This document shows positions 2,921 through 61,997 of a stretch of 64,000 nt of DNA, in pieces. The stretch's first letter is position 1; each line of letters begins with the position of its first letter. The notes under the pieces are model-generated. The model did not search any database, was not told where the DNA came from, and was given only the letters and a program-made list of their open reading frames with translations. Where the stretch lies: contig JBDRJK010000014.1 of assembly GCA_043814985.1 (NCBI GenBank), positions 1 through 64,000 of the forward strand. The letters are read 5' to 3'. Source of the stretch: Candidatus Aenigmatarchaeota archaeon (GTDB lineage: Archaea; Aenigmatarchaeota; Aenigmatarchaeia; Aenigmatarchaeales; Aenigmatarchaeaceae). The position numbers and the translations under genes were made by a program.

Positions 2921-2921
2921 C

Positions 2922-32900: not shown

Positions 32901-33869
32901 ATGAAAATAGGCATAGTCGGTGGGGGCATAAACGGCACTTTTTTGGCTTGGAAGCTCTCAAAGGAGCATGAAGTAACACTTTTTGAGAAAAAGAAGACAA
33001 TAGGCAAGGATGTGTGCTCAGGGCTTGTTTCTGAGAGGCTTTGGGATTACATACCCAAGTCACAAAAGCTAATACAAAACACAATAAGCCAAGCAGTGCT
33101 TCATTTTCCCAAGAAGGATGTCAAATTCAACTTCTACCCCAAGATGCTTGTCCTCAACCGCAAGTCATTGGACGGTTACATAGCTTCTCTGGCAGAGAAA
33201 AACGGCGCCAAGATACTTCTTAATACAGAAGTGAAGAAGATATACCATGTAAAAGGCAAGAGGCCGCAGATATCTGTTAAGGGAAAGCTTTACGAGTTCG
33301 ACTATTTGATAGGGTCGGACGGTTATTTCTCTGTTGTTAGGAAGAGCATAGGCATAAAGGCCCCGAAATACAGGCTGGGAATATACACCTATGTCAACAA
33401 GAAATCAACTTCTGATAAAGTGGATATATACCCTCTTGATGATGGCTTCCTCTGGGTGATACCAAGGAAAAAGAACATTGAATATGGTATTTTGGCCAAT
33501 CCCAGCATTGCTAGGAAAAGGTTTGACAGTTTCTGCAAGAAAAAGAAGGTCAAGCCGACGAAGATATATTCATACGTTGTTCCAAGAGGTTTGATTCATG
33601 CTGAAATGGGAAGGATCGCTCTTTGTGGCGATGTCATTGGTTTGACCAAGCCTTGGAGCGGTGGCGGCATACTCTGGAGCCTTACAGCAGACGAGATTCT
33701 CATCAACAGCTTCCCTGATTTCAAAAAATACAATGAAAAATTGAAAGATTACTTCGAGCCGAAAATATTCTTTTCCAAGTTAATAGAAAAAACAGGGAGA
33801 TTTGTGGGAAACAACACCCCAAGATTGGCGCCCAAAGAGCTTTACTTTGATGGGGACTGGATATTTTAA
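32901..33869 (+). CDS. geranylgeranyl reductase-family FAD oxidoreductase
   Basis: GGGING, VCSG, GSDG..S, WVIP, GD..GLTKPWSGGGI. Confidence 0.85.
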   Translation: MKIGIVGGGINGTFLAWKLSKEHEVTLFEKKKTIGKDVCSGLVSERLWDYIPKSQKLIQNTISQAVLHFPKKDVKFNFYPKMLVLNRKSLDGYIASLAEKNGAKILLNTEVKKIYHVKGKRPQISVKGKLYEFDYLIGSDGYFSVVRKSIGIKAPKYRLGIYTYVNKKSTSDKVDIYPLDDGFLWVIPRKKNIEYGILANPSIARKRFDSFCKKKKVKPTKIYSYVVPRGLIHAEMGRIALCGDVIGLTKPWSGGGILWSLTADEILINSFPDFKKYNEKLKDYFEPKIFFSKLIEKTGRFVGNNTPRLAPKELYFDGDWIF

Positions 33870-33885
33870 TGTAAATAGTGGTTTT

Positions 33886-34539
33886 TTGATATCAATCCTA
33901 ATTCCAACCAAGAACGAGCCACTTATACAAAATCTTGTCAATGAAATAAACAAGACAATAAAACAGAAGCATGAAATCATCATAATTGACAAGAGTAGGA
34001 GAAATCCCAAGATAAGGGGCGCAAAGGTTCTGAGGCAGAAGTCTGACGGTCTGGGTAATGCTTTTCTTGAAGGTTTTGCCAAGAGCAAGGGCAATATAAT
34101 AGCAGTGATGGACGGCGACGGCTCACATGATCCAGATGACTTGAAGAAAATGCTTGCCAAAATACCGGAGTACGACATTGCTATTGGATCAAAACTTGTT
34201 GTTGGTGGTAGGACAGAAGATTCATTTTCGAGGAGAATTGTTACAAGGGTTACAAATTCAATTGCAAGGACAATCTTAGGTTTGAACATCAGGGACTTGA
34301 TGACAGGATTTATAGTTGTCAAAAGAAGCGTTCTTGAGAAAATAAAACTCAGGCCAAAGGGCTACAAGTTCGTCCTTGAGATAATCTACAAGTCAAAAGC
34401 CAAGGTTGTAGAGGTTCCCATCACCTTCCACAAAAGAGAGGCAGGCGAATCTAAGGTTGGTTTTAATCTAAAAGGTATTAAAGAGTTCTCAAGAATAATA
34501 ATTTTAATATTTGAGCTGAGGCTGGGTGTGAATAAATGA
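33886..34539 (+). CDS. GT2 polyprenol-phosphate glycosyltransferase (DPM1-like)
   Basis: LIPTKNE, MDGDGSHDP, GSK, DLMTGF, EVPITF..R..GESK; TTG start at 33886 inferred. Confidence 0.9.
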   Translation: MISILIPTKNEPLIQNLVNEINKTIKQKHEIIIIDKSRRNPKIRGAKVLRQKSDGLGNAFLEGFAKSKGNIIAVMDGDGSHDPDDLKKMLAKIPEYDIAIGSKLVVGGRTEDSFSRRIVTRVTNSIARTILGLNIRDLMTGFIVVKRSVLEKIKLRPKGYKFVLEIIYKSKAKVVEVPITFHKREAGESKVGFNLKGIKEFSRIIILIFELRLGVNK

Positions 34540-35807
34540 GAATAGGAATAATAGGTGGCGGTTTGACTGGTTTGACAGCCGCGTTTATCCTGTCAAAAAA
34601 ACATAAAGTCACTGTCCTTGAAAAGGAAGATTATCTTGGTGGCATGGCTTCGTCATACACAATCAATTGGGATGGTAAAAAGTATCCCATAACAAAAACA
34701 TACCATCACATTCTTGATGGCGACAAGACAACTGTTGGCATCATCAAAAAACTTGGTCTTTACAATAAATACAACAAGAAAAAAGTAAAACAAGGTTTTA
34801 TCTATAAAAATAAAATAATGGGTTTTTCCACACCTTTGGAAATACTAAAATTTCCTATTCACTTTTCAGACAAAATTAGACTGGTTAAATTTATTATTCT
34901 AGATTCGAAAAAGAAAAATTGGGACGACCTTGAGGGTTTAAACACAAAAAAATGGATAACAGAAAAGGCAGGCAAGATTAACTATGATGTTTTTTTCAAT
35001 CAGCTTGTTAGGAACAAGTTCCATGAGTCACCAGAGAAAATAGCGGCATCATGGTTCGGTACGCGCTTCTTCAAGGAATCCTCATCCTTCCTTAAGAAAT
35101 TTGGATGGTTAAGAGGAGGGGTTGTACAAATCATAAATAACTTTGAGAAAAACATTCGTAAAAATAAGGGAAGAATAATTACCGGTTCTGAAGTGGTTTC
35201 AATTAGAAACAAGAGAATAACATATGTGAAGAATAAGAAAAGAAAAAAGATTCAATTTGATTTGATTGTCAGTACTGTTCCGCCTGAAATATTCCTTAAG
35301 ATTATGGACAAAGTACCAAAGGAATTGGAAAATTCCTTCAAAAAAATAAAATACCTCAGCTGTATATGTGCTACCATAGGGCTTAAGAAAAAAATGTTCG
35401 ATCAGTACTGGTTGAACATACTAGACAAGCTACCTTTTGTGGTCCTGTTCAACCATACCGCATTGTACGAGGATGCAGCACCGAAAGGAAAGTCAGTTTG
35501 TTATATTTTAACATATCTCAAGAGTAATGAGAAGCTCTGGAAGAAGTCTGAGAAGGAGATAAAAAAGATTTATGTTGATGCAATCAAAAGAATAATACCT
35601 GATTTCGAAGAAAACATAGAATGGTTTAACATATTCAAAGTAAAAAATGCTGAGGCCGTCTACAAATTAGGTTTCAAAAACCCACCAACAAGCTATGACG
35701 GCATATATTTTGGAGGCATTTATAAAACCTATCCCAAAATAAGAAACATGGCTTCTGCCATGGAAGAGGGGATAAAGGTTGCCAATGAGATAGAGAGGAC
35801 GGTTTAA
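34536..35807 (+). CDS. FAD-dependent oxidoreductase (HemY/amine oxidase/UGM-like superfamily)
   Basis: IIGGGLTGL, LEKEDYLGGMA, YHH. Confidence 0.85.
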   Translation: MRIGIIGGGLTGLTAAFILSKKHKVTVLEKEDYLGGMASSYTINWDGKKYPITKTYHHILDGDKTTVGIIKKLGLYNKYNKKKVKQGFIYKNKIMGFSTPLEILKFPIHFSDKIRLVKFIILDSKKKNWDDLEGLNTKKWITEKAGKINYDVFFNQLVRNKFHESPEKIAASWFGTRFFKESSSFLKKFGWLRGGVVQIINNFEKNIRKNKGRIITGSEVVSIRNKRITYVKNKKRKKIQFDLIVSTVPPEIFLKIMDKVPKELENSFKKIKYLSCICATIGLKKKMFDQYWLNILDKLPFVVLFNHTALYEDAAPKGKSVCYILTYLKSNEKLWKKSEKEIKKIYVDAIKRIIPDFEENIEWFNIFKVKNAEAVYKLGFKNPPTSYDGIYFGGIYKTYPKIRNMASAMEEGIKVANEIERTV

Positions 35808-36868
35808 TGTCTAAAGTAGCTTTTTTGAAACTGAATAAAGTCAGTAAAGAAGAGGTCAGGAAGACTGTCCACAAAGCAATGAAAATGGGAAACTGGAAAA
35901 AATACATAAAAGGCAAAAAAATCTTCGTAAAAATAAATGGAATTTCTGATCAAGTCGTTCCAGGCCAATGCACATCACCATGGGTCATAGATGCTGTCCT
36001 AGAAAAATTAAAGGACACATATCCCAAAACAACCATTTTCATGGGCGATGCCAATCTTGCAGCATCAGAACAGTTGAACAAGGCAGCCAAACTTTGGGGT
36101 TTCTATGAGCTTGCCAATAAATATGATGCAAGATTTGTTAACCTCTCGGAGGAACCTTTGATAAAAACAAAGTTTGGAGGCAAAGTCCTCAAGAAAACAG
36201 AAGTCCCGAAAATACTTTTAGATGTTGATAGAATTCTCAATATACCTGTTGCAAAGACGCATTGCCTCACAACAATAACATGCTGCTTGAAGAACCACTG
36301 GGGTCTTCTTCCAAGGTTCAGGCACCAGTACCACCTAGTTGCTGATCAGGCAATACCTGACGTCAATAATTTCTTCAGAAAAACAACCTTCAATGTCGTT
36401 GATTTCACAATAGGGATGGAAGGAAACGCACCAAGGACAGGCATATCTAAAATATTTAATTTAATTCTCGCTGGTCATGATAGAGTTGCAATAGATTACA
36501 CTGTTGCAAGACACATGGGTTTTGATGCAGACAAAATAAAACACATCGAGCTGGCTGAAAAGATGGGTATTGGTTCTAGAAAAAATATAAAAATTGCCGG
36601 TAGCAGATTTTTTGTTAACAAAGTAAAAGCACCAGAGCCAAACAAACAACCTATTTTCTTCTGGGAGATGCATCTAAGAAAGATTCCAGTTGTCAAACCA
36701 ATTCTTTTTGACACACCAATATTCCCCTGCCTATGCAACATAGCAACTTTTTACAACACTAAAATATGGTACAACAGGTTCGGTAGAAAATACATCAAGA
36801 AAATAATGAGAACCGCCTATGCTGAAGAATTCAGACCACTCTTTAAAAGAAACAACATAAAATATTAG
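35807..36868 (+). CDS. DUF362-family protein
   Basis: IFVKIN, TSP, NIPVAKTH, LKNHWG, MEGNAP, DRVAID. Confidence 0.85.
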   Translation: MSKVAFLKLNKVSKEEVRKTVHKAMKMGNWKKYIKGKKIFVKINGISDQVVPGQCTSPWVIDAVLEKLKDTYPKTTIFMGDANLAASEQLNKAAKLWGFYELANKYDARFVNLSEEPLIKTKFGGKVLKKTEVPKILLDVDRILNIPVAKTHCLTTITCCLKNHWGLLPRFRHQYHLVADQAIPDVNNFFRKTTFNVVDFTIGMEGNAPRTGISKIFNLILAGHDRVAIDYTVARHMGFDADKIKHIELAEKMGIGSRKNIKIAGSRFFVNKVKAPEPNKQPIFFWEMHLRKIPVVKPILFDTPIFPCLCNIATFYNTKIWYNRFGRKYIKKIMRTAYAEEFRPLFKRNNIKY

Positions 36869-36877
36869 TTGGATTAA

Positions 36878-37819
36878 ATGAAAATCTTTAAAATGAAAAA
36901 CCTAATTATGTTCCTTGCGTTCTCAGTAATAATTTATTCTGTATTGATTGTTGCTGGCGACTACAACAAAATTGCAGACAAGTTCAAACTTTTTAATCTG
37001 TGGGTCATACCAGTTGTGATGCTTTTCGCGTGGGCGGATGACTTTATACGATTTTTAAAATGGGACTACTTCCTAAAGAAAATAAAAATAAGAGTCGAAA
37101 AGAAAACATCATTCTTGATTTTCTTTTCTGGGCTTGCTATGTCCATAACACCCGGAAAGGTCGGAGAGGTTCTCAAGTCCTACCTCCTTAAGAAGACTGT
37201 CGGTGTGAAAATGAGGAAAAGTATAATGGTGGTAGTTTTTGAAAGACTAACAGATGTTTTGGCTCTCTCTATTTTGGCTCTATTGGGAGCATTCAGTTTT
37301 TTAAACAACCCTTATTTTATTTTTTTGATAGCATTTTTGATATTTACAATAACCCTAGCATTTGTTTTGCTTAGCAATAAAAAAGTTTTTTTCAAGTTTT
37401 CTAAAGTTCTCGTAAAAATACCAATTGTTAAAAAATATGTGAAGTACATTAATGATATTCACAAAACTTCACAGCAATTGCTGTCTCCCAAGGTTCTAGC
37501 AACAAGCACTCTAATGTCAGTTGCTTCTTGGTTTTTAGAATGCTTGGGTTTCTACATACTGTTGCACGCTTTAGGTGCACCATTGCCTATACTTACTGTA
37601 ACCTTCATATTTTCTTTCTCCTCAATATTCGGTTCAATAATATTTTTACCTGGAGGTTTGGGTGCTGCAGAGAGCAGCTTTGTTGCCTTGCTCCTATTTT
37701 CAGGGTTAACAATAACAACAGCAACGCTTGCAACAATCCTAATCAGGCTAACCACGCTGTTTTGGGGCATACTAATAGGCTTGGTGTGTTTGTCAATTCT
37801 CAGTAGGTGGAAAAAATGA
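36878..37819 (+). CDS. UPF0104 / LPG-synthase TM domain flippase-like protein
   Basis: TPGKVGE, FERLTD, PGGLGAAE; multi-TM. Confidence 0.88.
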   Translation: MKIFKMKNLIMFLAFSVIIYSVLIVAGDYNKIADKFKLFNLWVIPVVMLFAWADDFIRFLKWDYFLKKIKIRVEKKTSFLIFFSGLAMSITPGKVGEVLKSYLLKKTVGVKMRKSIMVVVFERLTDVLALSILALLGAFSFLNNPYFIFLIAFLIFTITLAFVLLSNKKVFFKFSKVLVKIPIVKKYVKYINDIHKTSQQLLSPKVLATSTLMSVASWFLECLGFYILLHALGAPLPILTVTFIFSFSSIFGSIIFLPGGLGAAESSFVALLLFSGLTITTATLATILIRLTTLFWGILIGLVCLSILSRWKK

Positions 37820-39309
37820 AAGTATTGTTGATAAAACCACAGAGAACAATCCCGAACAATTTCAGAGGCGTTGGCAGAATTTTCCCTTCTGTTGGCTTGT
37901 GCTACATAGGGGCTGTCCTAGAGAAAAACGGTTATGATGTAAAGGTTCTGGATGCTGCAATAGAAGGTTGGAGAAAAATAAACCAGAGAAGCGACGGTCT
38001 GAAATACATAGGAATAGACTTCAATGAGATTGGAAAAAGAATAAAGAAAGAGAAGCCTGACATTGTCGGGATAACTACTTTGTCTGTTGATGCTATCAGT
38101 GCAAGGCAAATAGCTCGAACAGTCAAGAATGTTGATAGCAACATAAAGGTCATGATGGGAGGCTGTCATGTTTCTGTGACACCGTTTAAGACAATAGCTG
38201 ACAAGAATGTTGACTTTGTGGTTGTCGGTGAAGGTGAATACACTACCTTGGATTTGGTAAAGACTCTTGATGAGGACAAAGAATTGTATAATGTAAAAGG
38301 TCTGATATACAGGGACAAAGACAAGGTAATTAAGAACAGACCAAGGGAATACATAAAGAATCTAGATGAGCTGCCCTTTCCTGCGTGGCATCTTACAAAC
38401 ATGAAAGAGTTCTTCAAGCTAACAAAATACCTGCAGGGTTCACATCTTACACCTGAACGCCACCTCAGCATAATAACCTCAAGAAGCTGCCCTTATGGTT
38501 GCATTTTCTGCTCTGTGAGATCTATAATGGGAAGGGGTTTCAGGCCCAGGAGCCCTGAGAACGTTGTTGCAGAAATGGAATACATGGTAAACAAATATAA
38601 GATAAAACTTTTCAGCGTAGAGGATGACAATCTAACATTTGACAAGAAAAGGGCTGAGAAGATATTTGACTTGATGATTGAAAAGAGGTTGAACAATAAA
38701 ATAACATGGGACACGCCAAACGGTGTCAGGGCTGATACGCTTGATGAGAATCTTCTTGGAAAGATGAAGAAGTCTGGTGCCGTGCACATATTTGTCAGCC
38801 CTGAGAGTGGCAGCCAGAGAGTGGTGAAAGATATAATAGGAAAGAAACTTGATCTTGGTACAGTTGAGAACGCTGTTAGAATCTGCAAAGATATAGGCTT
38901 GAAGATAAGCTGCTATTTCATTGTTGGCTTGCCTGGGGAAACCAAAGAAGACTTGGAAAAAACTGTTGCGTTTGCAAGCAAGATGAGAGAATTTGGAGCC
39001 ATTACCTTATGCGCTATGGCACGGCCCACCTTTGGTACTGAGTTGTACGATTTGTCAAAGAAGAAAGGTTACCTTATGGTTGATGGTGAAGAGTTGGAAA
39101 GAAGCCTAGTTCAATTTGAGAAACGAGGAGCCCTGAAAACTCCCGAGTTCACTCCTGAAGAATTAGATGAATACGCAAAAAGAATAAGAGCTGGCAACGA
39201 GTCAGACGAGATGAAGCAAATAATAAAAACAAAACCTTTCCACGCTTTCAAGCTTTTCACACTTCATCCAAAAATAATATCAAACTATCTTTTGAAGAAC
39301 AAGTCATAG
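37816..39309 (+). CDS. cobalamin-binding radical SAM enzyme (1)
   Basis: B12-binding N-domain (GGCH, GEGE), SRSCPYGCIFC, DDN, ESG. Confidence 0.93.
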   Translation: MKVLLIKPQRTIPNNFRGVGRIFPSVGLCYIGAVLEKNGYDVKVLDAAIEGWRKINQRSDGLKYIGIDFNEIGKRIKKEKPDIVGITTLSVDAISARQIARTVKNVDSNIKVMMGGCHVSVTPFKTIADKNVDFVVVGEGEYTTLDLVKTLDEDKELYNVKGLIYRDKDKVIKNRPREYIKNLDELPFPAWHLTNMKEFFKLTKYLQGSHLTPERHLSIITSRSCPYGCIFCSVRSIMGRGFRPRSPENVVAEMEYMVNKYKIKLFSVEDDNLTFDKKRAEKIFDLMIEKRLNNKITWDTPNGVRADTLDENLLGKMKKSGAVHIFVSPESGSQRVVKDIIGKKLDLGTVENAVRICKDIGLKISCYFIVGLPGETKEDLEKTVAFASKMREFGAITLCAMARPTFGTELYDLSKKKGYLMVDGEELERSLVQFEKRGALKTPEFTPEELDEYAKRIRAGNESDEMKQIIKTKPFHAFKLFTLHPKIISNYLLKNKS

Positions 39310-39314
39310 AAATT

Positions 39315-40913
39315 CTAATTCAATCTCGCCTTGAAGAATACGAAAAGCATATCAAAGCCTCGCAAGTGTTCGTATATGTTTATTCTTTGCTCTATCAGCT
39401 CAAGGTTTTCTTTGCCGTCACCAAGACGGTCAACCCAGATATTTTCCTTTAACACATCCACTTCTCTCCCTTCAAGATAAGCATCAGCAACACTCTGGTT
39501 GAAAAGAGAATTCTCTACCCATATAGTAACATTCTCGCTTTTCATGTAGCTAACAACATTTTTATTTTCTAGAGCTTCTATTGCTTTGAAATTGACGACG
39601 CCGTCAATATTCACAACCTTTCTTTCACTGAAATAAATGTAGATGCCTGAATTGAAAGAGCCAACTATAGTTGAAGGCGTTGTGTTCCCTTTAATCCATA
39701 GGGCATCTTCGTACATCTCGCTTTGCCAGTTATAGTAGCCCTTATCCCACTGCCTAATCCCGTTGTTAACCAGAAGTAAAATAAAAAGCACAAAAATTGC
39801 AGCCATCAGCACATCATTTTTCTTTATTTTTTTAACAAGATTGTAAAAGCCATAGGATGCCATCATGATTATCATCGGCATTATCGGTGTAAGGTACCTT
39901 ATCTGAACGCCCCAGAAGTAGATGTTATAGAATGAGAGAAGAAGCAATGCGTACAAAATAAAAACATTCAATCTCTTGAAGCTGCTTAGAGAATACAAAA
40001 GTGTTACTGACACAAACAAGGATATTATGATTGTTATGAAGTTTGAATTAAAGTCAATTACCCCGAACTGGTGAGCCACTGCACCGGCAGATCTTACAAT
40101 ATTTTCTGTAATCATGCTAAGAGAATCTGAAATGCTTTCTGGCGCCACTGTATTAAGAAAAGGAAATATCCCATGCCCCATGTTGTATTTTGCAACAGCG
40201 CTGCTCTGGACAATGGAACCAAAGGTGGCATAGTTCCATAGAAACCACGGTGAAACAACAAGACCTGCCACAATGACTACTAAGGCACCTCTTTTGATAC
40301 CGGTGATTAATTTCTTCTTGCTTTTCCAGAGCATGTCCGCAAGTATTGCCATTAGCAAGAATATTCCATCCAATCTAGACAAGAGAGTCAAGCCTATCAG
40401 TGCACCCAAGACTATCAAATTCTTATTCTTCATTTTTTTGTCTAGGTTGCAATAGTAAAAAAGAGTCGTGATTACAAGAAAGACGTACAGAACCATCTCT
40501 ATGCCATTCAAACTCTGGAACATTATGAAAGGATTAAGACCATATAATGCAGCGCTCATGAGTCCAATCTTTTTACCAAATAACTTTTCAGATAATTTGA
40601 ACAACATGAAGACTGTCAGTGTATCAAGAATAGTTGCTATTGTCAATATTATGTTGACTGCAAGTTGTAGATTATCAGTCATCAAGAAAACAGGAGCTAG
40701 AATCACTCCCCACAGAGGCTGGAAACCGTTTGTAACATCCGCGCCGTTGTAGGTCACACCATTTCCCAGAGCTATGTTTCTTGCAACAGAAATGACATAG
40801 AAGGAATCGTCCAGGACAATCTTTTCTATGAGTTCAGGAACTTCCTGCCATGATATTGCAAGTCTTATTAGAAAGGACAGAAGAATTATGATTACCAGCA
40901 ATTTCTTCTTCAT
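39315..40913 (-). CDS. GT-C fold membrane glycosyltransferase (ArnT/PMT-like)
   Basis: DDSFY in first loop, many TMs, NGIE, RLD, PW, RY. Confidence 0.8.
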   Translation of the reverse strand: MKKKLLVIIILLSFLIRLAISWQEVPELIEKIVLDDSFYVISVARNIALGNGVTYNGADVTNGFQPLWGVILAPVFLMTDNLQLAVNIILTIATILDTLTVFMLFKLSEKLFGKKIGLMSAALYGLNPFIMFQSLNGIEMVLYVFLVITTLFYYCNLDKKMKNKNLIVLGALIGLTLLSRLDGIFLLMAILADMLWKSKKKLITGIKRGALVVIVAGLVVSPWFLWNYATFGSIVQSSAVAKYNMGHGIFPFLNTVAPESISDSLSMITENIVRSAGAVAHQFGVIDFNSNFITIIISLFVSVTLLYSLSSFKRLNVFILYALLLLSFYNIYFWGVQIRYLTPIMPMIIMMASYGFYNLVKKIKKNDVLMAAIFVLFILLLVNNGIRQWDKGYYNWQSEMYEDALWIKGNTTPSTIVGSFNSGIYIYFSERKVVNIDGVVNFKAIEALENKNVVSYMKSENVTIWVENSLFNQSVADAYLEGREVDVLKENIWVDRLGDGKENLELIEQRINIYEHLRGFDMLFVFFKARLN

Positions 40914-40965
40914 ACTATTTTATTTACAGAATAATGTTTAAATAAGTCGTGAAGGAACTATAAAA

Positions 40966-42288: not shown

Positions 42289-42298
42289 AGTGATAAAA

Positions 42299-43681: not shown

Positions 43682-43720
43682 AATATCAACTTATTTAAAA
43701 TCTAGGGAAATAAGATTTTT

Positions 43721-47060: not shown

Positions 47061-47112
47061 AAAAGTATATATATAGACTTAAAAGTGCTATTAATAGTTC
47101 AAGGCTAGTTAA

Positions 47113-49460: not shown

Positions 49461-49508
49461 AAATCTGTTTTAGAAACATATTTAAAATTCGAACTTAAAG
49501 ATGATTGT

Positions 49509-50918: not shown

Positions 50919-50934
50919 TTGGGTTGAGAGGCTT

Positions 50935-51576: not shown

Positions 51577-51606
51577 TAGAAACTACATACTACAAGGGAA
51601 AAAATC

Positions 51607-52548: not shown

Positions 52549-53207
52549 TTACTAAAAAATTAAGTTCTATGTCTGATAAAATGAAAAGAAAAAAAACCGT
52601 AGAGAAAGAATTTGACGATTTATGGAAGGAAACAAAATCAGTTTCATTTCTGGGAGGAATAATTTTCTATATATCTGAGAGGGCAGCAATGAAGTCGATA
52701 GGCTTCATCAGCAGAAAATCCAAGGTTGTAGATGTTGGTTGTGCTACAGGAAGAACCCTCCTTCTTTTTAGAAAATACGGCTTTTCAGACAGCATTGGAA
52801 TAGACATATCAAAAGAGAGCCTGAAAATATGCAATTCAGAGGGTCTTGAGACAGGCAAGGATGTTTTTCTCATGGATGCCAAACGCATGAAATTCAAGAA
52901 AAGGTCCTTTGACTTGGTATTTGCAGAGGGACTTCTTGAGCACTTTGAAAACTTCCAGCCCTTTGTTGACGAGATGTGCAGGATAAGCAAGAAATATGTT
53001 ATGGTAATACAACCTAATGCGTTCTCTTACTGGCATCATATAGAAAATTTTTACTGGAAATTTTTCCCAAGGGACCATGTAGAGCAGCTGGCATATAGCT
53101 TGGATGATTTCAACAAAGCCTTTATGAAGAACAACTTCAAACTTAAAAAGGTTAAAAACTTAATTTTAAATTCAGGTTGGTCAATACTTTACGAAAGAAA
53201 AAAGTGA
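52545..53207 (+). CDS. class I SAM-dependent methyltransferase
   Basis: VDVGCATG, GIDIS, FDLV, LLEHF. Confidence 0.92.
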   Translation: MITKKLSSMSDKMKRKKTVEKEFDDLWKETKSVSFLGGIIFYISERAAMKSIGFISRKSKVVDVGCATGRTLLLFRKYGFSDSIGIDISKESLKICNSEGLETGKDVFLMDAKRMKFKKRSFDLVFAEGLLEHFENFQPFVDEMCRISKKYVMVIQPNAFSYWHHIENFYWKFFPRDHVEQLAYSLDDFNKAFMKNNFKLKKVKNLILNSGWSILYERKK

Positions 53208-53211
53208 TTTA

Positions 53212-54705: not shown

Positions 54706-54729
54706 CTATAAAAATTAAATGGTGATTGG

Positions 54730-54852
54730 TTGAAAGTAATTCTAATAAACCCCCAATATACCCAAGGCTATATTCACAGTACTGTGTCCAGTGGTAAGAA
54801 AATATTATTTTCGGTTAGTATAAGGCATTATCTAAGTGAAAAATATGCCTAG
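54730..54852 (+). pseudogene. orphaned 5' fragment of a radical SAM gene (MKVILINPQYTQGYIHSTVSSG...)
   Basis: GGTGA RBS plus TTG start; first 17 aa align with the N-terminus of 55698..57068 (MVKILAVNPQFTPDYIHS); stops at 54852. Confidence 0.75.
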
Positions 54853-55720
54853 AGGAGTTTATTTGAGAAATGAAAAACATTTGAAACTGTTAGAAGTTGC
54901 AAGATCTGAAATAAAAGTTCCACCTTTCTTAGGCAAACATCATTCTGATGAAACTAAATTAAAGATTAGCCAAAGATTGAAAGGTAGTCAGGTTTGGAAC
55001 AAAGGCAAAAAATTGCCATACGACGTTTGGAATAAGGGTATGACAAAAGAAACGAATAAGAAGTTAAAAATTATTGGTCAAAAGATATCAATTTCCAATA
55101 AAGGTAGAAAGGTTTGGAATAAAGGAAAGGAAAATAAAGAATTGAAACAAAGATGGCAGAATCCAGAATTTAGAAAAATTATGATAGAAATTTCGAAAGA
55201 TATTATGAAGAAAAACTGGAATAATCCAGTATACATAGAAAAAATGGAGAAATTGAGAACTTTTTTCAAAAGAAAAAGAAATGTTCAAGAAATAGAGCGA
55301 TTAAGGAACATTTCAAATAATAGATTAGGAAGTAAAAATTCTGTTGAACAGAATAAGAAGATTAGTGAAGCACGTTTAAGACAGAAGATACCGCATAAGG
55401 ATACTTATCCTGAAATGTTAGTTCAAAAATGCCTAGCAGAAAGGAATATTAATTTCACTACTCATTATTCAATTCTTGGCCAACCAGATATTTTTATAAA
55501 ACCGAACATTTGTGTGTTTATTGATGGTTGTTATTGGCATGGATGTCCAGTTCATTTTCCTGAAAAGATCAATACTAATGATATAAAGATATCTGAAGCT
55601 CTAAGAAAGCAGGGTTATACGGTTATAAGAATTTGGGAACATGAAATCAAAAATAATACTACTAAATGTATAAATAAAATTATGGAGTCAATCGAAAATG
55701 GTCAAGATATTAGCCGTTAA
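54845..55720 (+). mobile_element. free-standing homing-endonuclease-like gene (NUMOD3 + WNKG repeats + Vsr/DUF559-like nuclease)
   Basis: GKHHSDETKLKIS, three VWNKG repeats, TYPE, PDIF, FIDGCYWHGCP, IRIWEHE; AT-rich. Confidence 0.85.
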
Positions 55721-57068
55721 TCCTCAATTTACGCCAGATTACATACACTCGGCTCGTTGGGATTCTCTGTCACTCAGTGGTAGCCACTGGTATCCTGTGT
55801 TTTTATCATATATGGTGAGCTTGTTAGAAAAGCACAGCCATGAATGTAGGCTTGTTGATGCCGAGGCGGAGAACCTTAGCGACAGTCAAGTCCTGAGGAT
55901 TGCCAAAGAGTTCAAGCCGGATTTTTCCGTGCTGTACATCTCAGAGAGGGGACTAGGCGCCAACATGAATCTGGCAAAATCTATAAAGAACAGCACAAAA
56001 TCCAAAATAATTTTCGTAGGACCTTGGTGTTCTCTGGTAAAGAAGGAGAAAGTCAACAAGAAGATTGTCGACTTTTTCATAGAAGGCGAGTTTGAGTTCG
56101 CGGTCTTGAAAATAGTTGAAGGAAAAGGCAAGAAAGGATGCATCAGGACAGAGAGACTGACCCCAGAACAGCTGAAGGATCTTGGCTGGGTGACGAAGAT
56201 ATATCAAAAGCATCTGAACATCAACAACTACAGGATAAGTTCTCTTGAGCATAGGTTTGTGGATTTGCTGACATCGAGGAAATGCTACTGGGGCAGGTGC
56301 TCGTTCTGTCTGTGGCCATCAACAATACTACAAAAGGGTGGCTATGTCGAAAGAGATATTGAAGATTCTTTGGATGAGATTGAATGGGCTTGGAACAATT
56401 TGAATATAAAAGAAATATTCATTCAGGATGATACAATATCGCCAAAAAGGGCGAAAGAGCTTTCAGAAGGTCTGATAAAGAGATGCTTGAAAATAAGCTG
56501 GGCCTGCTATGCCAGAGGCGATTTGGCGTTCACTCAGAAAATAGTCAACATGATGGCAAAGAGCGGCTGCCGCGTCGTTCACATAGGTTTTGAGAGCGGA
56601 AACAATGAAATACTAAAGAGGATGAACAAGGGAACGACTGTCGAGAACCTGACTGAGGTCAGCAGGCGTTTCAGGAAGGTGGGCATAGATGTTCACGGCG
56701 ATTTCATGATTGGGAATATCGGGGAAACACGAGAGACCATTCAGCAGACAATGAACTTTATCAAGAAGCTCGACCTCTCAATAGTCCAGATAGCGCCGCC
56801 AAAACTGTATGGTAATTGCAAGATTTACGAGTGGTATGCCCATAACAACGAGGGAGCGTACATAGACAAGAGAGGATTGCCGAACCTTAAGGACATAACG
56901 TACGAGGAGATGGTTGCCTTGGTGAAGAAGGGACTCAGAGACTATTACATGAGCAAGGAGTTCATATCAAGGACGCTGACCCATCCCTCTCAATTAAAAA
57001 GAGTTATCGGTTCTGCTATTCCGGCAATCAAGTTCATGTTCAGCGGAAGAAAAGAGGTACCTGTCTGA
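55698..57068 (+). CDS. cobalamin-binding radical SAM enzyme (7), HpnJ-like
   Basis: NP...SARW...WYP, GEFE, CYWGRCSFC, QDDT, GFESG. Confidence 0.9.
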   Translation: MVKILAVNPQFTPDYIHSARWDSLSLSGSHWYPVFLSYMVSLLEKHSHECRLVDAEAENLSDSQVLRIAKEFKPDFSVLYISERGLGANMNLAKSIKNSTKSKIIFVGPWCSLVKKEKVNKKIVDFFIEGEFEFAVLKIVEGKGKKGCIRTERLTPEQLKDLGWVTKIYQKHLNINNYRISSLEHRFVDLLTSRKCYWGRCSFCLWPSTILQKGGYVERDIEDSLDEIEWAWNNLNIKEIFIQDDTISPKRAKELSEGLIKRCLKISWACYARGDLAFTQKIVNMMAKSGCRVVHIGFESGNNEILKRMNKGTTVENLTEVSRRFRKVGIDVHGDFMIGNIGETRETIQQTMNFIKKLDLSIVQIAPPKLYGNCKIYEWYAHNNEGAYIDKRGLPNLKDITYEEMVALVKKGLRDYYMSKEFISRTLTHPSQLKRVIGSAIPAIKFMFSGRKEVPV

Positions 57069-57077
57069 GATGATTCA

Positions 57078-58025
57078 ATGAAACCCAGCATAACTGTTTT
57101 GGTAACAATAAAAAACTCAGCCCGTACAATAAAGAAATGTGTTGACTCGCTTCTGAAACAGAACTACAATAACTACAAGGTTTATGTTGTCGATTCCTTT
57201 TCCAATGACGGCAGCTATGAGATACTGAAAAGTTATGGAAAGAAAATAAAGTTCGAGCAGTTCAAAAGCACGCCACCTCAGGCTTACAATCATGCAATCA
57301 AGAAGATAAATACAACATTCGTTGCATTCACTGACGGCGACTGTGTGGCTGATAGTAACTGGTTAAAGAATTTAATTTCAGGATTCAAGACAGAAGATAT
57401 AGCAGCAGTTGCTGGTTTCTGCAAGACGCCTAGAAACGTTAACTTCCTACAGAAACTAGTTGGCATTGAGCTGGAGAACAGGTTCAAGAAGTTTCCCAAA
57501 TACATACCTCGTGCACCTACCATGAACATTTGTGTGAGAACCAAGATTCTAAAGAAACTTATGTTCAACAGCAAGCTTTTTGTTGGTTATGACACTGATT
57601 TGGGATACAGAGTGATAAGTACAGGGAAGAAAATCCTTTACGAACCAAAAGCAGTGATATATCATTATCACAGGGCCACATGGAAAAAAATATTCAAGCA
57701 GCAAATGACTTATGCAAGGTACCTACCCCTGATATATTCCAAGCACAAGAAAAGAGTTGGAGGTGATTACATATCCAAGCCAACCATGATGTACCACCTA
57801 GCTGTATTTTATCTGGCTGCTTTATTTCTATTCTTGAGTATCTTCTCAATAACATCTCTAGATTTTTTCGGCATATTTGTTTTGATATTCCTACTGATAT
57901 CCGTATTTGAGTTTCTGAGCTTCAAAACGAAGAAGGAATATTTCCCCTACTTCCTTATGATATTCTTTGTCAGAACGCTTGCATGGTCAATAGGACTAGT
58001 TCTTGGCATACTTGGAAGAGATTAG
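57078..58025 (+). CDS. GT2 glycosyltransferase with C-terminal TM helices
   Basis: VDSFSNDG, FTDGDC, YDTDLGYR. Confidence 0.9.
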   Translation: MKPSITVLVTIKNSARTIKKCVDSLLKQNYNNYKVYVVDSFSNDGSYEILKSYGKKIKFEQFKSTPPQAYNHAIKKINTTFVAFTDGDCVADSNWLKNLISGFKTEDIAAVAGFCKTPRNVNFLQKLVGIELENRFKKFPKYIPRAPTMNICVRTKILKKLMFNSKLFVGYDTDLGYRVISTGKKILYEPKAVIYHYHRATWKKIFKQQMTYARYLPLIYSKHKKRVGGDYISKPTMMYHLAVFYLAALFLFLSIFSITSLDFFGIFVLIFLLISVFEFLSFKTKKEYFPYFLMIFFVRTLAWSIGLVLGILGRD

Positions 58026-58723
58026 AAAATTCTTCCCAATATTTCCTTCTTGTACTTCATGGCAAACTTGATGTAACCGTGAGCTAGTTTGGAGAAGTTG
58101 CCTTTCTTGCCGCACTGATAGCTGCACCAGACAGAGACAGTTGATATCTTCATCTCTCTCTCCTTGGCTATCTGCAGGATTTCAAGTTCTATACCGAAGC
58201 CCTCCAAGTCAATTCTGGGAAGTATGTACTTGACAGCCTCTCTGGAATAGCACCTGAAGCCTGACGCGACATCAGTGAAGAAGCCCCCAGAAGACAAAAG
58301 CACTACCATGGTTGAGAATACATTGAAAAATATCCTTAATTTTGGATAGCCCCTCAGTTTCATGTACCTTGACCCTATGACAATGTCCGAATATTTCTTC
58401 TTGACCATCAGCTCGACAACAGGTATGTCCTTGGGATCATGCTGGCCGTCAGCGTCAATAGTTACAAGCATATTACCCTTTTCCTTGAGAAAACGCTTGA
58501 AGCCTTGTATTGTCGCATATCCCTTGCCTCGGTTGTCGGGATAGCTAAGCATTATTACCCTCTTGTTATTACCATACTTCTCCATGACAATCTTATATGT
58601 ATTGTCGCAGCTTCCATCATCAACCAGAATAATCCTGTCAACATATTTCAGTGTCTTGCCTATAATATCGTTTATTGTTTTGCTTTCGTTGTAGGCACAA
58701 ATCAATGCATAGGTCCTCATCAA
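58022..58723 (-). CDS. GT2 glycosyltransferase (DPM1-like)
   Basis: AYNE, VDDGSCD, NRGKG, DADGQHDP, GSR, SGFRCY. Confidence 0.92.
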   Translation of the reverse strand: MMRTYALICAYNESKTINDIIGKTLKYVDRIILVDDGSCDNTYKIVMEKYGNNKRVIMLSYPDNRGKGYATIQGFKRFLKEKGNMLVTIDADGQHDPKDIPVVELMVKKKYSDIVIGSRYMKLRGYPKLRIFFNVFSTMVVLLSSGGFFTDVASGFRCYSREAVKYILPRIDLEGFGIELEILQIAKEREMKISTVSVWCSYQCGKKGNFSKLAHGYIKFAMKYKKEILGRIF

Positions 58724-60774
58724 ACGACCTCGTATATCTTTACCTGCTCATTCCTGAACACTTGCTCGAAATGCTCTAGGCCCTGTCCCTCAAGCATGAA
58801 CATCTTGGTGAAAACAGAATCTCTCAGGGTTGGCGGTATCAATACAATGTAAGAATAATGCGCTGGTAACCATGCTGTCATTTGTATTGTCTCATTTACA
58901 AACCTGGCATTTAGCTGTCCCTCAAGAGGCTTGAGCGCTGTTATCATAGAGTTCAATTCCTCTTCAGTGAATGTTATGGAAATAGCTTCTGTCCCGTTAT
59001 AAGTTATAATCTCCTTGAATAGGGCAATGTTTATTCCTTGGACAAGCATTGGTATTGGTGGCTGGGTATTGTACACTAATATCTGTGTCTGCTGTCCCAT
59101 GTCGTAATTTCTAAACATCAAGTTTCCGTTGTTATCAGTGGACCTGGAACTTTCACCAAGCTGTATGTACAAAGGACATGATTCATCTGACACGCCGTCA
59201 CAGCCAGTACCGAAGTATTGCAGCCATCTGAATTTTCCAATCAAGTCATCAGATGCTATCCAATAGACTTTTGGAGAGGTGCCCTGGTATTTTCTTATCA
59301 ATTCCAGTGACTCGTTCTCGTTGCTGGTAACCATTATCTTTCCCAAATCCGTTATCCTGTCGTTGATTGTGTACAGGCAAGTCAACGTACAGTGAGCACC
59401 GTCTGCAAAGTTTCTACGTTCTGCAAGACCGTTGATCATATGTCCCGGATCCCACCACGTGCCGACAATAGAATTTTCCGGAGTTTCAGTCTTTAGGAAA
59501 TTCCAGGCAGCATCCCAGTTAGGGCTCATGTCAGGCCCAAGGCCTTTACCCATCTCCAAACCCATGTTTGCTATAATAAGAACTAGGAATATACTGCCAC
59601 CGATGAAAAACGATTTAACGACTTTTTCATGGTTTTTAATCCTTTCCATTAACATGCCAAAACCATATCCTATCATAGAAATAAAAATCACGCTTGTGAA
59701 CTCTGTAAATCTTATGCCCCTGACTGTCGTGTACAATCCTACAACAAACAGAGTCATAAGAAAAGCCAGGTTAAAGAATTTATTCTTTTTGTAACTGCTG
59801 TAAAAACCAAATGATATTAACAAAATAAATACCAGAAATATCAGGGAGTCAATCAAGCCATCTCCCATTGAAAACCTTCCCATTGCCAAAATCCACCCAC
59901 CCAATTCAAATATGCTGAAGGGTTGAAGTTCTGCAATGGAAATATTCACTATCCACGTTTCAGGGTTCTGTGAAAATACCATCAAAGACCTGAACGACTT
60001 TAGCGGCTCAACTCCTGTTAAAAATCCTATGACAATCAAGCCTATTAAGAGGGCAACCAGAACCTTGCTCAAGCCCTTAATTTCCTTGAAGATGTCAATA
60101 TCGGTTTTTCCAAGATTTTTCAGAACCAGACTTAAAATAATGAAAATCACTGCAGCTATCACCATTATGGCATAGGTATAGGAAAACAGTGTCCATGTCA
60201 GCATGAAGCATGAGAATGATATCAATGCCAGGCAAATGCTGCTTATAGTCTTCCTTTTCAAGGCATAAACGCCAGCGAACATTGTAAGCAGGATGAAGAA
60301 GAGAACCAATTGGTCCGTATCATAGGAACTGCCGAATGTTCTGACCAAGACCTGAGGCGCAGAAGCTACTAGGATCGCGCTAAAAAGGCCTCCATATTCG
60401 TTTGACAATTCTTTAACCAATAGAAATGCAGGAATTGCTATTATGGCACCATAAAAGGCAGATGCAAGGGCTGATGTTGTCAAAAGGCTCATGCCAAAAT
60501 TCTGCAGCAGCCAATAGAGCATGGTGGTTATATAGAACATGAGAGGGGCTGTGTAATCGTAATCAACAATTTTCCCCACATAATATGAAATTTCGTCCCA
60601 TACTGGCAGATGCCCCCAGTTTGCCATGTAATAGGTCTGCCTGTACATGAAAACAGGGTCGAATGACAATATCCTATCAGGGACTATGTTGAACGATCTT
60701 ATGTAAAAACTGAAGGCAACTATGCCTAACAGCACGAATACATACCAGTATTTTTTCAAAATATTTACTTTCAT
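58720..60774 (-). CDS. aglB: oligosaccharyltransferase AglB (STT3 family)
   Basis: FDP, YDTD, SIAE, RF, WWDPGH, DLIGK; multi-TM N-terminal half. Confidence 0.93.
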   Translation of the reverse strand: MKVNILKKYWYVFVLLGIVAFSFYIRSFNIVPDRILSFDPVFMYRQTYYMANWGHLPVWDEISYYVGKIVDYDYTAPLMFYITTMLYWLLQNFGMSLLTTSALASAFYGAIIAIPAFLLVKELSNEYGGLFSAILVASAPQVLVRTFGSSYDTDQLVLFFILLTMFAGVYALKRKTISSICLALISFSCFMLTWTLFSYTYAIMVIAAVIFIILSLVLKNLGKTDIDIFKEIKGLSKVLVALLIGLIVIGFLTGVEPLKSFRSLMVFSQNPETWIVNISIAELQPFSIFELGGWILAMGRFSMGDGLIDSLIFLVFILLISFGFYSSYKKNKFFNLAFLMTLFVVGLYTTVRGIRFTEFTSVIFISMIGYGFGMLMERIKNHEKVVKSFFIGGSIFLVLIIANMGLEMGKGLGPDMSPNWDAAWNFLKTETPENSIVGTWWDPGHMINGLAERRNFADGAHCTLTCLYTINDRITDLGKIMVTSNENESLELIRKYQGTSPKVYWIASDDLIGKFRWLQYFGTGCDGVSDESCPLYIQLGESSRSTDNNGNLMFRNYDMGQQTQILVYNTQPPIPMLVQGINIALFKEIITYNGTEAISITFTEEELNSMITALKPLEGQLNARFVNETIQMTAWLPAHYSYIVLIPPTLRDSVFTKMFMLEGQGLEHFEQVFRNEQVKIYEVV

Positions 60775-60827
60775 AATTACTAAGAAAAATTAGAAAACAA
60801 AGTATAAAAAGGTTCAGTCTTACCGTT

Positions 60828-61997
60828 CTACAACATGCCCAACAAGACAAAACTGACAGCAAATAGCACAATATTCTGCAGCAGAATCAGCAAGGCGAAC
60901 AGCTTGACCCTTCCCAGCCCCTGCAAGTAGTTGGTGTATATCATGTTAAAACCGAAAACCAGCCCAAAAGAGACTAGAGCCTTGAATATTAGCAGGCTTG
61001 GCAGATAGCTTTCGAAGAATGAGGCAAAGAGCCAGTCCGAAAACAGAATAACAAACAATATTCCAATCAAGAATACAGGTGTGTAGAGCAGGAATCCCTT
61101 CTTCAGGATATTTTTTGCATCCCCATGCCTCTTAAAGCCGTTGAGCTCTGATACTTTCGGGAACACCACAGAAGATATTGCTGTTGGAACTAGCAGTGTT
61201 GCAAAATAAAAGAGGAAGGCGAATGAAAAGTAACCGATTGCCTCCGGGGAGAAGAAGAGATTCAAGACAGGGATGATGATTGTAAACAGATTGATGATTA
61301 TCCATGTGAAATACACAGGCAAGCTGAACTTCATGAATATTTTTTTGACATCAAATTCCTCTGTTTTTTTAATCACCCCTTCTTTGAAAAAGAACTTCAA
61401 ATTGAATATGTTTCCGATTAAAAACCCGAAACTCCAGCCTAGAACTGCATAGGAGATTCCAAAGGAGCTCAGCAAGACACTAAGAACAGCAGAGCTTGTT
61501 AGCGTCAGGAACTGGGACAAGGCAAAAAGTTTGAACTTATGGAAGCCAAGGACAATGTTCTGGAAAACAATAAAGAATGTCATGCCTGCCATCAGAACCC
61601 CTGGAAACACCAGATAGTTGAGTGAGGCGTCCTTCAGGAATACTGAGGCTATTTGCTCGTTGAAAACTAGGATCAGGGCTATCAGGACTGAATAGCTGAA
61701 AATCCTTATTTTCAAGAACCATTTGATCAGGTAGCCGGCTTTTTCTCTGCTTGTACTCTTGAATTCAGAGATATATTTTGTTAAAGTTGCGTAAGCGCCG
61801 AACTCTATTAGAATAGGGAAGAACGTGAAAAGATAAGAGATGACCTTGAAGACGCCAAAATCTACAGCTCCCAGCTGGTTTGCAAGAAGCAGGTTACCAA
61901 AAAACAGGATTATGTTAGCGGAAAGGCTTGCTAAAAGTATTAAACCGCCGCTCCTTGCCAAGTCCCCTTTCAGAAGGGAAAGAATAGCCACTTTCAT
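60828..61997 (-). CDS. oligosaccharide flippase (Wzx/MOP family)
   Basis: LG..DFG, TKYIS, IGYFS, VVFPKVS; about 12 TMs. Confidence 0.88.
   Translation of the reverse strand: MKVAILSLLKGDLARSGGLILLASLSANIILFFGNLLLANQLGAVDFGVFKVISYLFTFFPILIEFGAYATLTKYISEFKSTSREKAGYLIKWFLKIRIFSYSVLIALILVFNEQIASVFLKDASLNYLVFPGVLMAGMTFFIVFQNIVLGFHKFKLFALSQFLTLTSSAVLSVLLSSFGISYAVLGWSFGFLIGNIFNLKFFFKEGVIKKTEEFDVKKIFMKFSLPVYFTWIIINLFTIIIPVLNLFFSPEAIGYFSFAFLFYFATLLVPTAISSVVFPKVSELNGFKRHGDAKNILKKGFLLYTPVFLIGILFVILFSDWLFASFFESYLPSLLIFKALVSFGLVFGFNMIYTNYLQGLGRVKLFALLILLQNIVLFAVSFVLLGML

Follow-up and report, generated by a model that had tools for sequence, protein, structure and literature searches.

Why would a small archaeal genome place an array of B12-domain radical enzymes among the genes of an N-glycosylation pathway? 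The question is raised by a window of 64,000 nucleotides from contig JBDRJK010000014.1 (assembly GCA_043814985.1) of a Candidatus Aenigmatarchaeota archaeon, in which an island at 32901–61997 combines the oligosaccharyltransferase AglB with a series of radical S-adenosylmethionine (SAM) enzymes. Pfam and NCBIfam scans covered the 27 open reading frames (ORFs) between 32901 and 64000 of the window. Within the island they identified seven radical SAM genes with a B12-binding domain, one radical SAM gene with a SPASM domain, three class I methyltransferases, six family 2 glycosyltransferases (GT2), two GT-C glycosyltransferases, two flippase-like proteins, a DUF362 protein, two flavoproteins and AglB. 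All of these gene classes had been claimed, at these same positions, in an earlier note made from the DNA letters, and all were confirmed; an endonuclease gene (54836–55720) is additional to that inventory. The analyses below suggest that this is an N-glycosylation island whose radical SAM enzymes probably tailor sugars in the cytoplasm during N-glycan assembly. The sugar-diversifying steps are, just as probably, carried out largely by this class-B-type radical SAM array in place of the usual nucleotide-sugar enzymes. The locus points to unstudied radical chemistry on the surface sugars of a tiny symbiotic archaeon.

In the whole genome (808 kb in 21 contigs, 91% complete), the B12-binding domain PF02310 occurs in eight genes, seven of which fall inside 19.3 kb of the island, where an even spread would put ∼0.19 matches. 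The eighth lies on contig C19, with two GT2 genes ∼0.7 and ∼4.7 kb away. The island is bounded by SecDF and a geranylgeranyl-reductase-family flavoprotein (GGR) on one side and by AglB and a Wzx-type flippase on the other. The window is archaeal, with RadA, Cdc6, a family B polymerase, RPA and NrdD encoded upstream of the island. The Pfam scan found no SDR epimerase or dehydratase, nucleotidyltransferase or family 4 glycosyltransferase (GT4) in the island. Genome-wide, NTP_transferase and SDR epimerase/dehydratase are represented by a single gene each, versus eight B12-type and at least one SPASM radical SAM genes in glycan loci. As a check on the assembly, contigs from three public runs (two studies) were compared with the window; they cover all 30 bins of 37800–57100, mostly at identities of at least 99%, and bridge several gene junctions, with none spanning the whole region.

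The same arrangement recurs in the phylum. In a search with paralog 2, most of the 40 related genomes covered (designated G; fetched or found loci are designated L and long homologs P) proved to have clustered copies, and 18 regions of these relatives were labelled by BLAST against the window proteins and by Pfam. The frame from SecDF–GGR to AglB–Wzx stands on one contig in G003, G004, G005, G012 and G017, with three to seven B12-domain radical SAM genes inside (4 kb of the G004 island are not included in the count). In G001 the two ends of the frame lie on two contigs, and a named Aenigmatarchaeota metagenome-assembled genome (MAG; L049) has the order SecDF–GGR–B12-domain radical SAM gene likewise. 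With the frame shared by five relatives, the link of the radical SAM array to AglB and glycosyltransferase genes that had been proposed earlier stands. The relatives' islands also carry SDR epimerases/dehydratases, nucleotidyltransferases, UDP-glucose dehydrogenases, DegT aminotransferases and hexapeptide acyltransferases, together with GT4, Alg13/14, an AglH-type gene, polysaccharide deacetylases, UbiA prenyltransferases and SPASM enzymes. Such ordinary sugar genes identify them as true glycan islands, ordinary save for the radical SAM array. The absence of nucleotide-sugar genes and GT4 noted earlier thus holds for the island in the window and not for those of the relatives, which carry them.

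The content within the frame is mosaic. G003 shares paralogs 5 (51% identity) and 6 (63%, adjoining a 52%-identical ortholog of the next GT2 gene, 50935), G012 shares paralogs 3 (64%) and 7 (51%; L001:15743–17104), and G013 shares paralog 1 (59%) and the DUF362 protein. At least one copy of PF02310 is present in 33 of the 40 relatives, with a range of 0–9 and a median of 2, compared with eight in the genome studied here. An MftF-like GT2 stands within one gene of a B12-domain radical SAM gene in all eight islands examined, which is weak evidence in islands so dense. A fixed glycosyltransferase partner for each radical SAM subfamily was considered and is not established, the density of the islands making this proximity weak.

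AglB has the WWDPG motif at 440–444, DYD at 71 and DTD at 152, and the motif is kept in five relatives. In G005, AglB is split into two adjacent ORFs (L018:1864–2697 and 2720–3946), which may reflect a stop codon, a frameshift or a fault in the assembly. The genome encodes a cis-prenyltransferase (C19:109478–110140), and no AglH-type phosphosugar transferase was found in it at 91% completeness. In Haloferax, an AglJ-like GT2 starts the glycan on dolichyl monophosphate. Given the cis-prenyltransferase and the lack of an AglH-type gene, initiation by the AglJ-like GT2 on dolichyl monophosphate would be the simplest model here as well.

The gene flanking the frame beside Wzx specifies a protein of 1333 residues that has hydrophobic segments at either end. 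Its 88 NxS/T sequons amount to 6.6 per 100 residues, whereas composition alone would predict 29.5 sequons and the genome as a whole averages 0.65 per 100 residues. Among the genome's ORFs of at least 200 residues it ranks second in sequon density, and the next gene (66655–72033), for a surface protein of 1792 residues, reaches a density of 4.5 on the same scale. The 1333-residue protein has homologs adjoining Wzx–AglB in G001, G003 and G017. Judged by its sequence, this protein is likely the main predicted target of N-glycosylation. The locus and genome hold the features of an AglB cluster together: an STT3 motif, clustered glycosyltransferases with a flippase, a carrier synthesis gene and a sequon-bearing neighbour.

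All seven B12-domain paralogs match the radical SAM domain PF04055, and six exceed the cut-off for PF02310 (49–73 bits). The CxxxCxxC motif is canonical in six; paralog 7 reads CYWGRCSFC and its G012 ortholog CYWSKCTFC, a Cx4Cx2C form found in only these two of 173 family members. Pairwise identity among the paralogs is 24–43%. Six of the seven have HpnJ (TIGR03471) as their best curated match, and the scores of all seven paralogs against it are 179–244 bits (187, 228, 205, 187, 179, 217 and 244 bits for paralogs 1 to 7) versus a cut-off of 577.6. For paralog 1 the best family is the Sden_1168 P-methyltransferase, with 247.6 bits versus a cut-off of 575. The BchE, ApyD, QCMT, PhpK, ladderane, HpnR and AprD4 models rank after HpnJ, and the AprD4 family (NF033070) scores 41–107 bits versus a cut-off of 500. 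Among solved structures, the best relatives of paralog 2 are AprD4 (6fd2; 87 bits) and 9ccb (74 bits), the latter being the glutamine C-methyltransferase QCMT according to the excerpted text of a 2026 review (PMC12931638). The AprD4 alignment is confined to the radical SAM core of paralog 2 (residues 146–374), and TokK, CysS and OxsB align with its N-terminal domain. The best solved relative of paralog 7 is OxsB, at 40 bits. In the same excerpt, HpnJ and BchE are grouped under 'other or unknown transformations' (PMC12931638).

Three assignments of these enzymes were rejected. A tRNA or protein methylthiotransferase function is disfavoured by scores of 33–59 bits for MiaB/RimO-type models, versus 179–247 bits for the best class B families. 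The earlier note had named clustering with such enzymes, and loss of the link to glycosyltransferases and AglB in relatives, as outcomes that would speak against it; what was found is low MiaB/RimO scores and a linkage kept in the relatives. A hopanoid function and, for paralog 1, phosphonate P-methylation of the Sden_1168/PhpK kind are ruled out because neither a squalene-hopene cyclase (PF13243) nor a phosphoenolpyruvate (PEP) mutase (PF13714) was found in the genome (91% complete), with the HpnJ and Sden_1168 scores falling below cut-off as given above.

A FastTree phylogeny was built from 173 members, of which eight come from this genome, 45 belong to loci of the relatives and 120 were taken from species-representative genomes (79 loci). 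Paralogs 2 and 3 fall in a clade of 28 rows, 17 of them from Chloroflexota (support 97); paralog 1 in a Bathyarchaeota-rich clade of 19 rows (98); paralog 4 in a clade of eight rows, all from Aenigmatarchaeota (99); paralogs 6 and 7 in an Aenigmatarchaeota-dominated clade of 13 rows (96); and paralog 5 in a mixed clade of nine rows (90). The C19 copy groups with Asgard rows (five rows, support 97). Six of the eight genes have a one-to-one ortholog from another island, with support of 95–100. In broad picture, the tree suggests that the paralogs are old and distinct subfamilies, in at least four well-supported clades, with no recent local duplication. One member of the family, in G017 (L003:8882–11317, minus strand), is an 811-residue protein with a LAGLIDADG insert of ∼375 residues just before its SRGCPFNC loop. 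The insert ends in ...SGN followed by S and is most likely an intein; intein domains occur in six of the 100 long homologs described below.

A connection with glycosyltransferases is also seen well outside the island. Among 100 homologs of 771–2200 residues (E ≤ 1e-20), 22 are fused to a glycosyltransferase domain: 14 to a GT4-type domain, 11 to a GT2 domain (four to both) and one to a PMT_2 GT-C. All seven paralogs have such a fused homolog at 30–38% identity; the best long homolog of paralogs 6 and 7 combines GT2, radical SAM and GT4 domains. Other fusions involve an SDR epimerase (P0020), NeuB (P0039), a polysaccharide deacetylase (P0094) and FemAB (P0028), and the sample contains about nine class I methyltransferase fusions and eight SPASM fusions. 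One protein of 1826 residues (P0007) joins DUF362, ferredoxin (Fer4) domains, a B12-domain radical SAM enzyme and a GT4. In the 74 loci of other phyla with the gene called, at least two paralogs were present in 34, a glycan-gene label in 32 and a directly adjacent glycosyltransferase in 15. As a control, 73 of 521 windows of 16 kb (14%) from the genome studied here, taken away from radical SAM loci, carry a glycan label. GT-C genes adjoin homologs in six of the wider loci. Pfam analysis of 136 unlabelled neighbour genes revealed a recurring module in Chloroflexota MAGs (L022, L026, L029), in which an alkaline-phosphatase-like phosphodiesterase is followed by an HpnJ-like B12-domain radical SAM enzyme, a GT2 and an LPG_synthase_TM protein. 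The flippase-like protein of this module scores 55–62 bits against HpnL, below cut-off.

From the gene content, frame, motifs, subfamilies and glycosyltransferase fusions observed, we infer the following substrate, order of steps and chemistry. A GT2 resembling dolichyl-phosphate (Dol-P)-sugar synthases would start the glycan on dolichyl phosphate, and further GT2s would extend it at the cytoplasmic face. The seven B12-domain radical SAM enzymes, the SPASM enzyme and the three methyltransferases would each edit one lipid-linked sugar residue or, less likely, the nucleotide-sugar donor. The Wzx-like protein would flip the finished glycan, and AglB would pass it to the sequon-rich surface proteins encoded nearby. 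In a second branch, Dol-P-monosaccharides may be made, flipped by the LPG_synthase_TM-type protein and added outside by the two GT-Cs. No transmembrane (TM) segment is predicted for the methyltransferases or the radical SAM enzymes, the only borderline case being a hydrophobic stretch in paralog 3, and both groups are therefore probably cytoplasmic. Taken with the few sugar enzymes of the genome, this suggests that sugar diversity is made in the cytoplasm, after or with glycosyl transfer. A lipid-linked glycan is the more likely substrate because of the analogy with HpnJ and the calditol synthase Cds and because of the glycosyltransferase fusions; the NeuB and epimerase fusions make a nucleotide sugar possible. 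As to the reaction, C-methylation is given somewhat short of an even chance, and ring contraction, C–C bond formation or dehydration in the manner of HpnJ, Cds or AprD4 a slightly smaller one, the remainder falling to other reactions. The earlier proposal of repeatedly C-methylated or rearranged polyprenol-linked sugars is supported in its glycan-assembly island tied to AglB and not in its C-methylation; HpnJ, the nearest curated family, and AprD4, the nearest solved structure, are no methylases.

Several points weigh against the proposal of sugar tailoring during N-glycan assembly. All paralogs miss every curated cut-off, which precludes a transfer of function, and AprD4, the solved structure closest to paralog 2, is cobalamin-free according to the excerpted review (PMC12931638). 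Sampling for the tree favoured paralog 2 and the method was a quick one, so that only its broad picture is reliable. Adjacency to glycosyltransferases is partly expected by chance in such dense islands. Of the wider loci, 42 of 74 have no glycan label, in a comparison in which the labelling is rough and the control comes from one genome only, and some contexts consist of ketoacyl synthases (L035, L058), PqqD (L066) or housekeeping genes. To our knowledge no DPANN glycan structures exist, although no search was made on this point. Finally, FecCD/BtuC, PduO-type and CobA-type adenosyltransferases, CobS and CbiQ/EcfT have no match in the genome (91% complete); across 41 genomes FecCD was found in two and the PduO type in six, of which two (G007, G038) are without any B12 domain.

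This shortage of cobalamin genes bears on one alternative directly, namely that the B12-type domains bind no cobalamin and that the enzymes are cobalamin-independent dehydratases or isomerases of sugars of the AprD4 kind. According to the excerpted review, AprD4 and ArsL bind no cobalamin and yet lie within the same similarity network (PMC12931638). The lack of transport and salvage genes in the genome and their near absence from 40 relatives, AprD4 as best solved relative of paralog 2 and the sub-threshold B12 domain of paralog 7 would all fit. We nevertheless regard it as unlikely, in view of the PF02310 matches of the other six paralogs at 49–73 bits, an AprD4 alignment limited to the core where TokK, CysS and OxsB align N-terminally, and the cobalamin genes beside homologs in other archaea. 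The latter are CobD or CobA/BtuR genes (L032, L043, L046), and their presence in other lineages indicates that the wider radical SAM family probably uses cobalamin; in G039 a B12-domain radical SAM gene is immediately preceded by a PduO-type gene. The earlier expectation that a small-genome archaeon would have to scavenge cobalamin is consistent with the missing uptake and salvage genes, and the missing supply raises the question of what symbionts take from their hosts. In G031, a small B12-binding-domain protein (171-residue frame) adjoins a PduO-type adenosyltransferase gene (C1:31689–31880 and 32212–32652) ∼7 kb from a B12-domain radical SAM gene, and this pair may be a lead to cobalamin handling within the order.

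Other alternatives concern the substrate. The radical SAM enzymes might instead tailor another glycoconjugate, for example a lipoglycan, a glycolipid or a polysaccharide that is secreted, with the GT2, flippase-like and GT-C genes of the island assembling it. The left block of the island (GT2, oxidoreductase, DUF362, LPG_synthase_TM and paralog 1) does resemble the Chloroflexota module, which lacks AglB; HpnJ and Cds, the closest analogies, have membrane-lipid sugar head groups as their substrates, as far as the excerpted source goes; and the eighth paralog stands with GT2 genes away from AglB. Set against this are the position of the enzymes between AglB–Wzx and GGR in five relatives, the 88 sequons of the flanking gene product and the single Wzx-type flippase of the island, which make a separate glycoconjugate distinctly unlikely. 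Isoprenoid lipids such as dolichol or ether lipids, methylated, cyclised or cross-linked as by GrsA/B, Hgm and HpnR/HpnP, are a very unlikely substrate. The island does hold a GG-reductase homolog and an oxidoreductase of CrtI/HpnE fold, a cis-prenyltransferase is present, models of the ladderane-lipid family and HpnR reach 75–144 bits, and GrsA/B and Hgm are described in the excerpted literature as B12-binding radical SAM enzymes acting on archaeal lipids. Copy number and content, however, vary from island to island (0–9 per genome) as is typical of surface glycans and not of core lipids, the fusions are to glycosyltransferases, an epimerase, NeuB and a deacetylase and not to lipid enzymes, and the GGR gene is part of the conserved flank, outside the variable part. 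There is little chance that the targets are residues of a surface glycoprotein or of a ribosomally synthesized and post-translationally modified peptide (RiPP), modified as by QCMT, Mmp10, PoyC and ApyD: the Pfam scan of the island revealed no precursor-peptide or RiPP recognition gene, and the conserved partners are glycosyltransferases. In favour of such targets, QCMT ranks second among the solved relatives of paralog 2, one distant homolog adjoins PqqD, SPASM enzymes often mature peptides, and 35–168 bits are reached with models of ApyD and of RiPP C-methyltransferases; these scores are no higher than those of other class B families.

The features of the island and of its flank are collected in Table 1.

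Table 1. Predicted genes from the GG-reductase-family gene to the sequon-rich surface protein, with window coordinates and supporting matches
Feature	Coordinates	Strand	Evidence
GG-reductase-family flavoprotein, short	32901..33869	+	TIGR02032 126 bits, below cut-off
GT2, Dol-P-hexose synthase / AglJ-like	33802..34539	+	PF00535 69.8 bits
FAD oxidoreductase, amine-oxidase fold (PRK07233 family)	34536..35807	+	NF005560 332.6 bits, above cut-off 252
DUF362 protein	35807..36868	+	PF04015 133.5 bits; 77%-identical ortholog in G013
LPG_synthase_TM flippase-like membrane protein	36878..37819	+	PF03706 140.7 bits; ∼8 TM segments
B12-domain radical SAM paralog 1	37807..39309	+	PF02310 71.8, PF04055 92.6 bits; CPYGCIFC
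GT-C, PMT_2-like	39315..40913	-	PF13231 55.9 bits; ∼8 TM segments
B12-domain radical SAM paralog 2	40966..42288	+	PF02310 72.7, PF04055 74.7 bits
B12-domain radical SAM paralog 3	42290..43681	+	PF02310 70.6, PF04055 91.4 bits
Class I SAM methyltransferase	43721..44407	+	PF08241 73.4 bits
B12-domain radical SAM paralog 4	44404..45762	+	PF02310 61.2, PF04055 96.4 bits
B12-domain radical SAM paralog 5	45759..47060	+	PF02310 69.2, PF04055 92.3 bits
Probable class I methyltransferase, weak	47113..47691	+	PF13489 28.4 bits versus cut-off 27; no NCBIfam match
GT2	47678..48433	+	PF00535 109.2 bits
Radical SAM + SPASM	48411..49460	+	PF04055 72, PF13186 24.5 bits; CNNRCLMC
B12-domain radical SAM paralog 6	49509..50918	+	PF02310 49, PF04055 66.3 bits
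Short GT2-like protein	50935..51576	+	PF00535 35.5 bits, partial; 231-residue ortholog in G003
GT2	51607..52548	+	PF00535 63.5 bits
Class I SAM methyltransferase	52545..53207	+	PF08241 62.4 bits
Polytopic GT-C-like protein	53212..54705	+	no Pfam match; NF047440 LA_3751/2 family 49.7 bits, below cut-off; ∼11 TM segments
NUMOD3 + Vsr-type endonuclease, free-standing	54836..55720	+	PF03852 38.2, PF07460 30.2 bits
B12-domain radical SAM paralog 7, most divergent	55698..57068	+	PF04055 71.9 bits; PF02310 29.4 versus cut-off 32.1
GT2 with C-terminal TM segments, MftF-like	57078..58025	+	PF00535 81.7 bits; TIGR03965 97.8 bits, below cut-off
GT2, polyprenyl-phosphate sugar synthase type	58022..58723	-	PF00535 69.6 bits
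AglB (STT3) oligosaccharyltransferase	58720..60774	-	PF02516 82.7 bits; WWDPG
Wzx/AglR-like oligosaccharide flippase	60828..61997	-	PF01943 61.5 bits; ∼10 TM segments
1333-residue membrane-anchored surface protein, 5' part	62046..64000 (contig: to 66047)	+	88 sequons

Orthologs of the GGR gene, 50–67% identical, stand beside SecF in G001, G003, G004, G005, G012 and G017, and this conserved left-flank gene by SecDF is a candidate polyprenol/dolichol reductase. The GT2 that follows it scores 78 bits against AglJ (TIGR04182) and 56 bits against DPhHxTase_Halo, both below cut-off; the GT2 beside AglB scores 69.5 bits against PpgS and 64.6 bits against AglJ, likewise below the cut-offs. The best solved relative of the FAD oxidoreductase is PF1083 (3nrn), a weak match of 44.7 bits, and the DUF362 protein has no match among solved structures. 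The LPG_synthase_TM protein also matches TIGR00374 above cut-off (89.8 bits). Weak solved relatives of the SPASM enzyme are SkfB (38 bits) and BlsE (29 bits). Orthologs of the polytopic GT-C-like protein, at 36–42% identity, occur in G001, G003, G005, G012 and G017.

The endonuclease gene, of Vsr/PD-(D/E)XK type, overlaps the start of paralog 7 by 23 nucleotides and is probably a mobile passenger outside the pathway. Contigs of the public runs X2 and X3 diverge from the window left of 54125 and left of 55638, which means that this region differs between strains. In G029, a free-standing endonuclease gene with LAGLIDADG_2 and NUMOD3 domains (L009:18445–19617, plus strand) lies directly before a paralog-7-like radical SAM gene and is the second gene of homing-endonuclease type found beside this subfamily. 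The G+C content is 0.32–0.34 at 44000–48000 and 52000–56000 versus 0.39–0.41 in the island flanks, a difference that fits a mosaic origin of the cassettes.

What the array would mean for the organism follows from its size. The island takes up ∼3.6% of the 808-kb genome and the eight radical SAM genes ∼1.4%; editing of sugars by radical enzymes would explain such an outlay of DNA beside one nucleotidyltransferase and one epimerase. Extended further, the data allow a more tentative and rather doubtful proposal: an HpnJ-like radical SAM toolkit, each enzyme tied to one glycosyltransferase, may diversify surface glycans after transfer. Were this true, N-glycans would contain C-branched, deoxygenated or carbocyclic (ring-contracted) sugars, a chemistry not yet seen on proteins, the toolkit would be shared by genome-reduced archaea and many uncultivated bacteria, and the DPANN surface layer, built with cobalamin acquired from the host, would itself be a host-dependent trait. 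Searches of titles and abstracts in the library consulted turned up no report that connects class B radical SAM enzymes with protein glycosylation in archaea, DPANN included. The large HpnJ-like branch of class B is now tied by synteny and fusions to glycosyltransferases and to an AglB with a likely target, which gives it a concrete candidate substrate class. If the sugars are edited on the lipid carrier, glycan biosynthesis would gain a new layer, and C–H functionalisation of sugars would gain new enzymes.

Among the closest known systems is the archaeal agl pathway, as in Haloferax volcanii (AglB, AglJ, AglG, AglI, AglE, AglD, AglR and AglS). It likewise has an AglB with the WWDxG motif, a Wzx-type flippase, GT2s resembling Dol-P-sugar synthases, no AglH-type enzyme, GT-Cs for additions outside, SAM methyltransferases and mosaic gene content. 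In contrast to it, the island described here has seven class-B-type and one SPASM radical SAM enzymes among its glycosyltransferases, in a genome nearly without nucleotide-sugar enzymes (one NTP_transferase, one SDR epimerase). We know of no agl pathway with a radical SAM step, and the literature searches brought none to light.

For the radical enzymes, the nearest parallels are found in lipid and antibiotic pathways. In the excerpted text of PMC13459092, ring contraction of glucosamine is proposed for HpnJ, on a hopanoid-linked sugar supplied by HpnI and HpnK, a reaction stated there as not yet reconstituted, and a like contraction of lipid-linked glucose is proposed for calditol synthase in Sulfolobus. 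The HpnJ branch, which with HpnI, HpnK and HpnL leads to the hopanoid cyclitol ether, resembles the island in its GT2 partner, in a partner of the LPG_synthase_TM family (HpnL-type fold) and, as described in that excerpt, in the proposed action on a sugar already attached to lipid. It differs in that the window has no HpnK-type gene and the genome no squalene-hopene cyclase. Cds of Sulfolobus acidocaldarius, an archaeal radical SAM enzyme, is alike by its description in the excerpt, where a cyclopentyl head group is proposed to arise from lipid-linked glucose; its target is a membrane-lipid head group and no protein glycan. AprD4, the diol dehydratase of apramycin 3'-deoxygenation, GenK/GenD1 and MoeK5 belong to antibiotic pathways of actinomycetes and share the B12-like N-terminal domain and the action on sugar carbons of assembled glycosides. 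The Chloroflexota modules and the fusions of B12-domain radical SAM enzymes with glycosyltransferases are bacterial, lack AglB and are themselves uncharacterised; outside the phylum, paralogs 2 and 3 have their closest sequence relatives in the modules (38–45% identity), where the same partner families are present.

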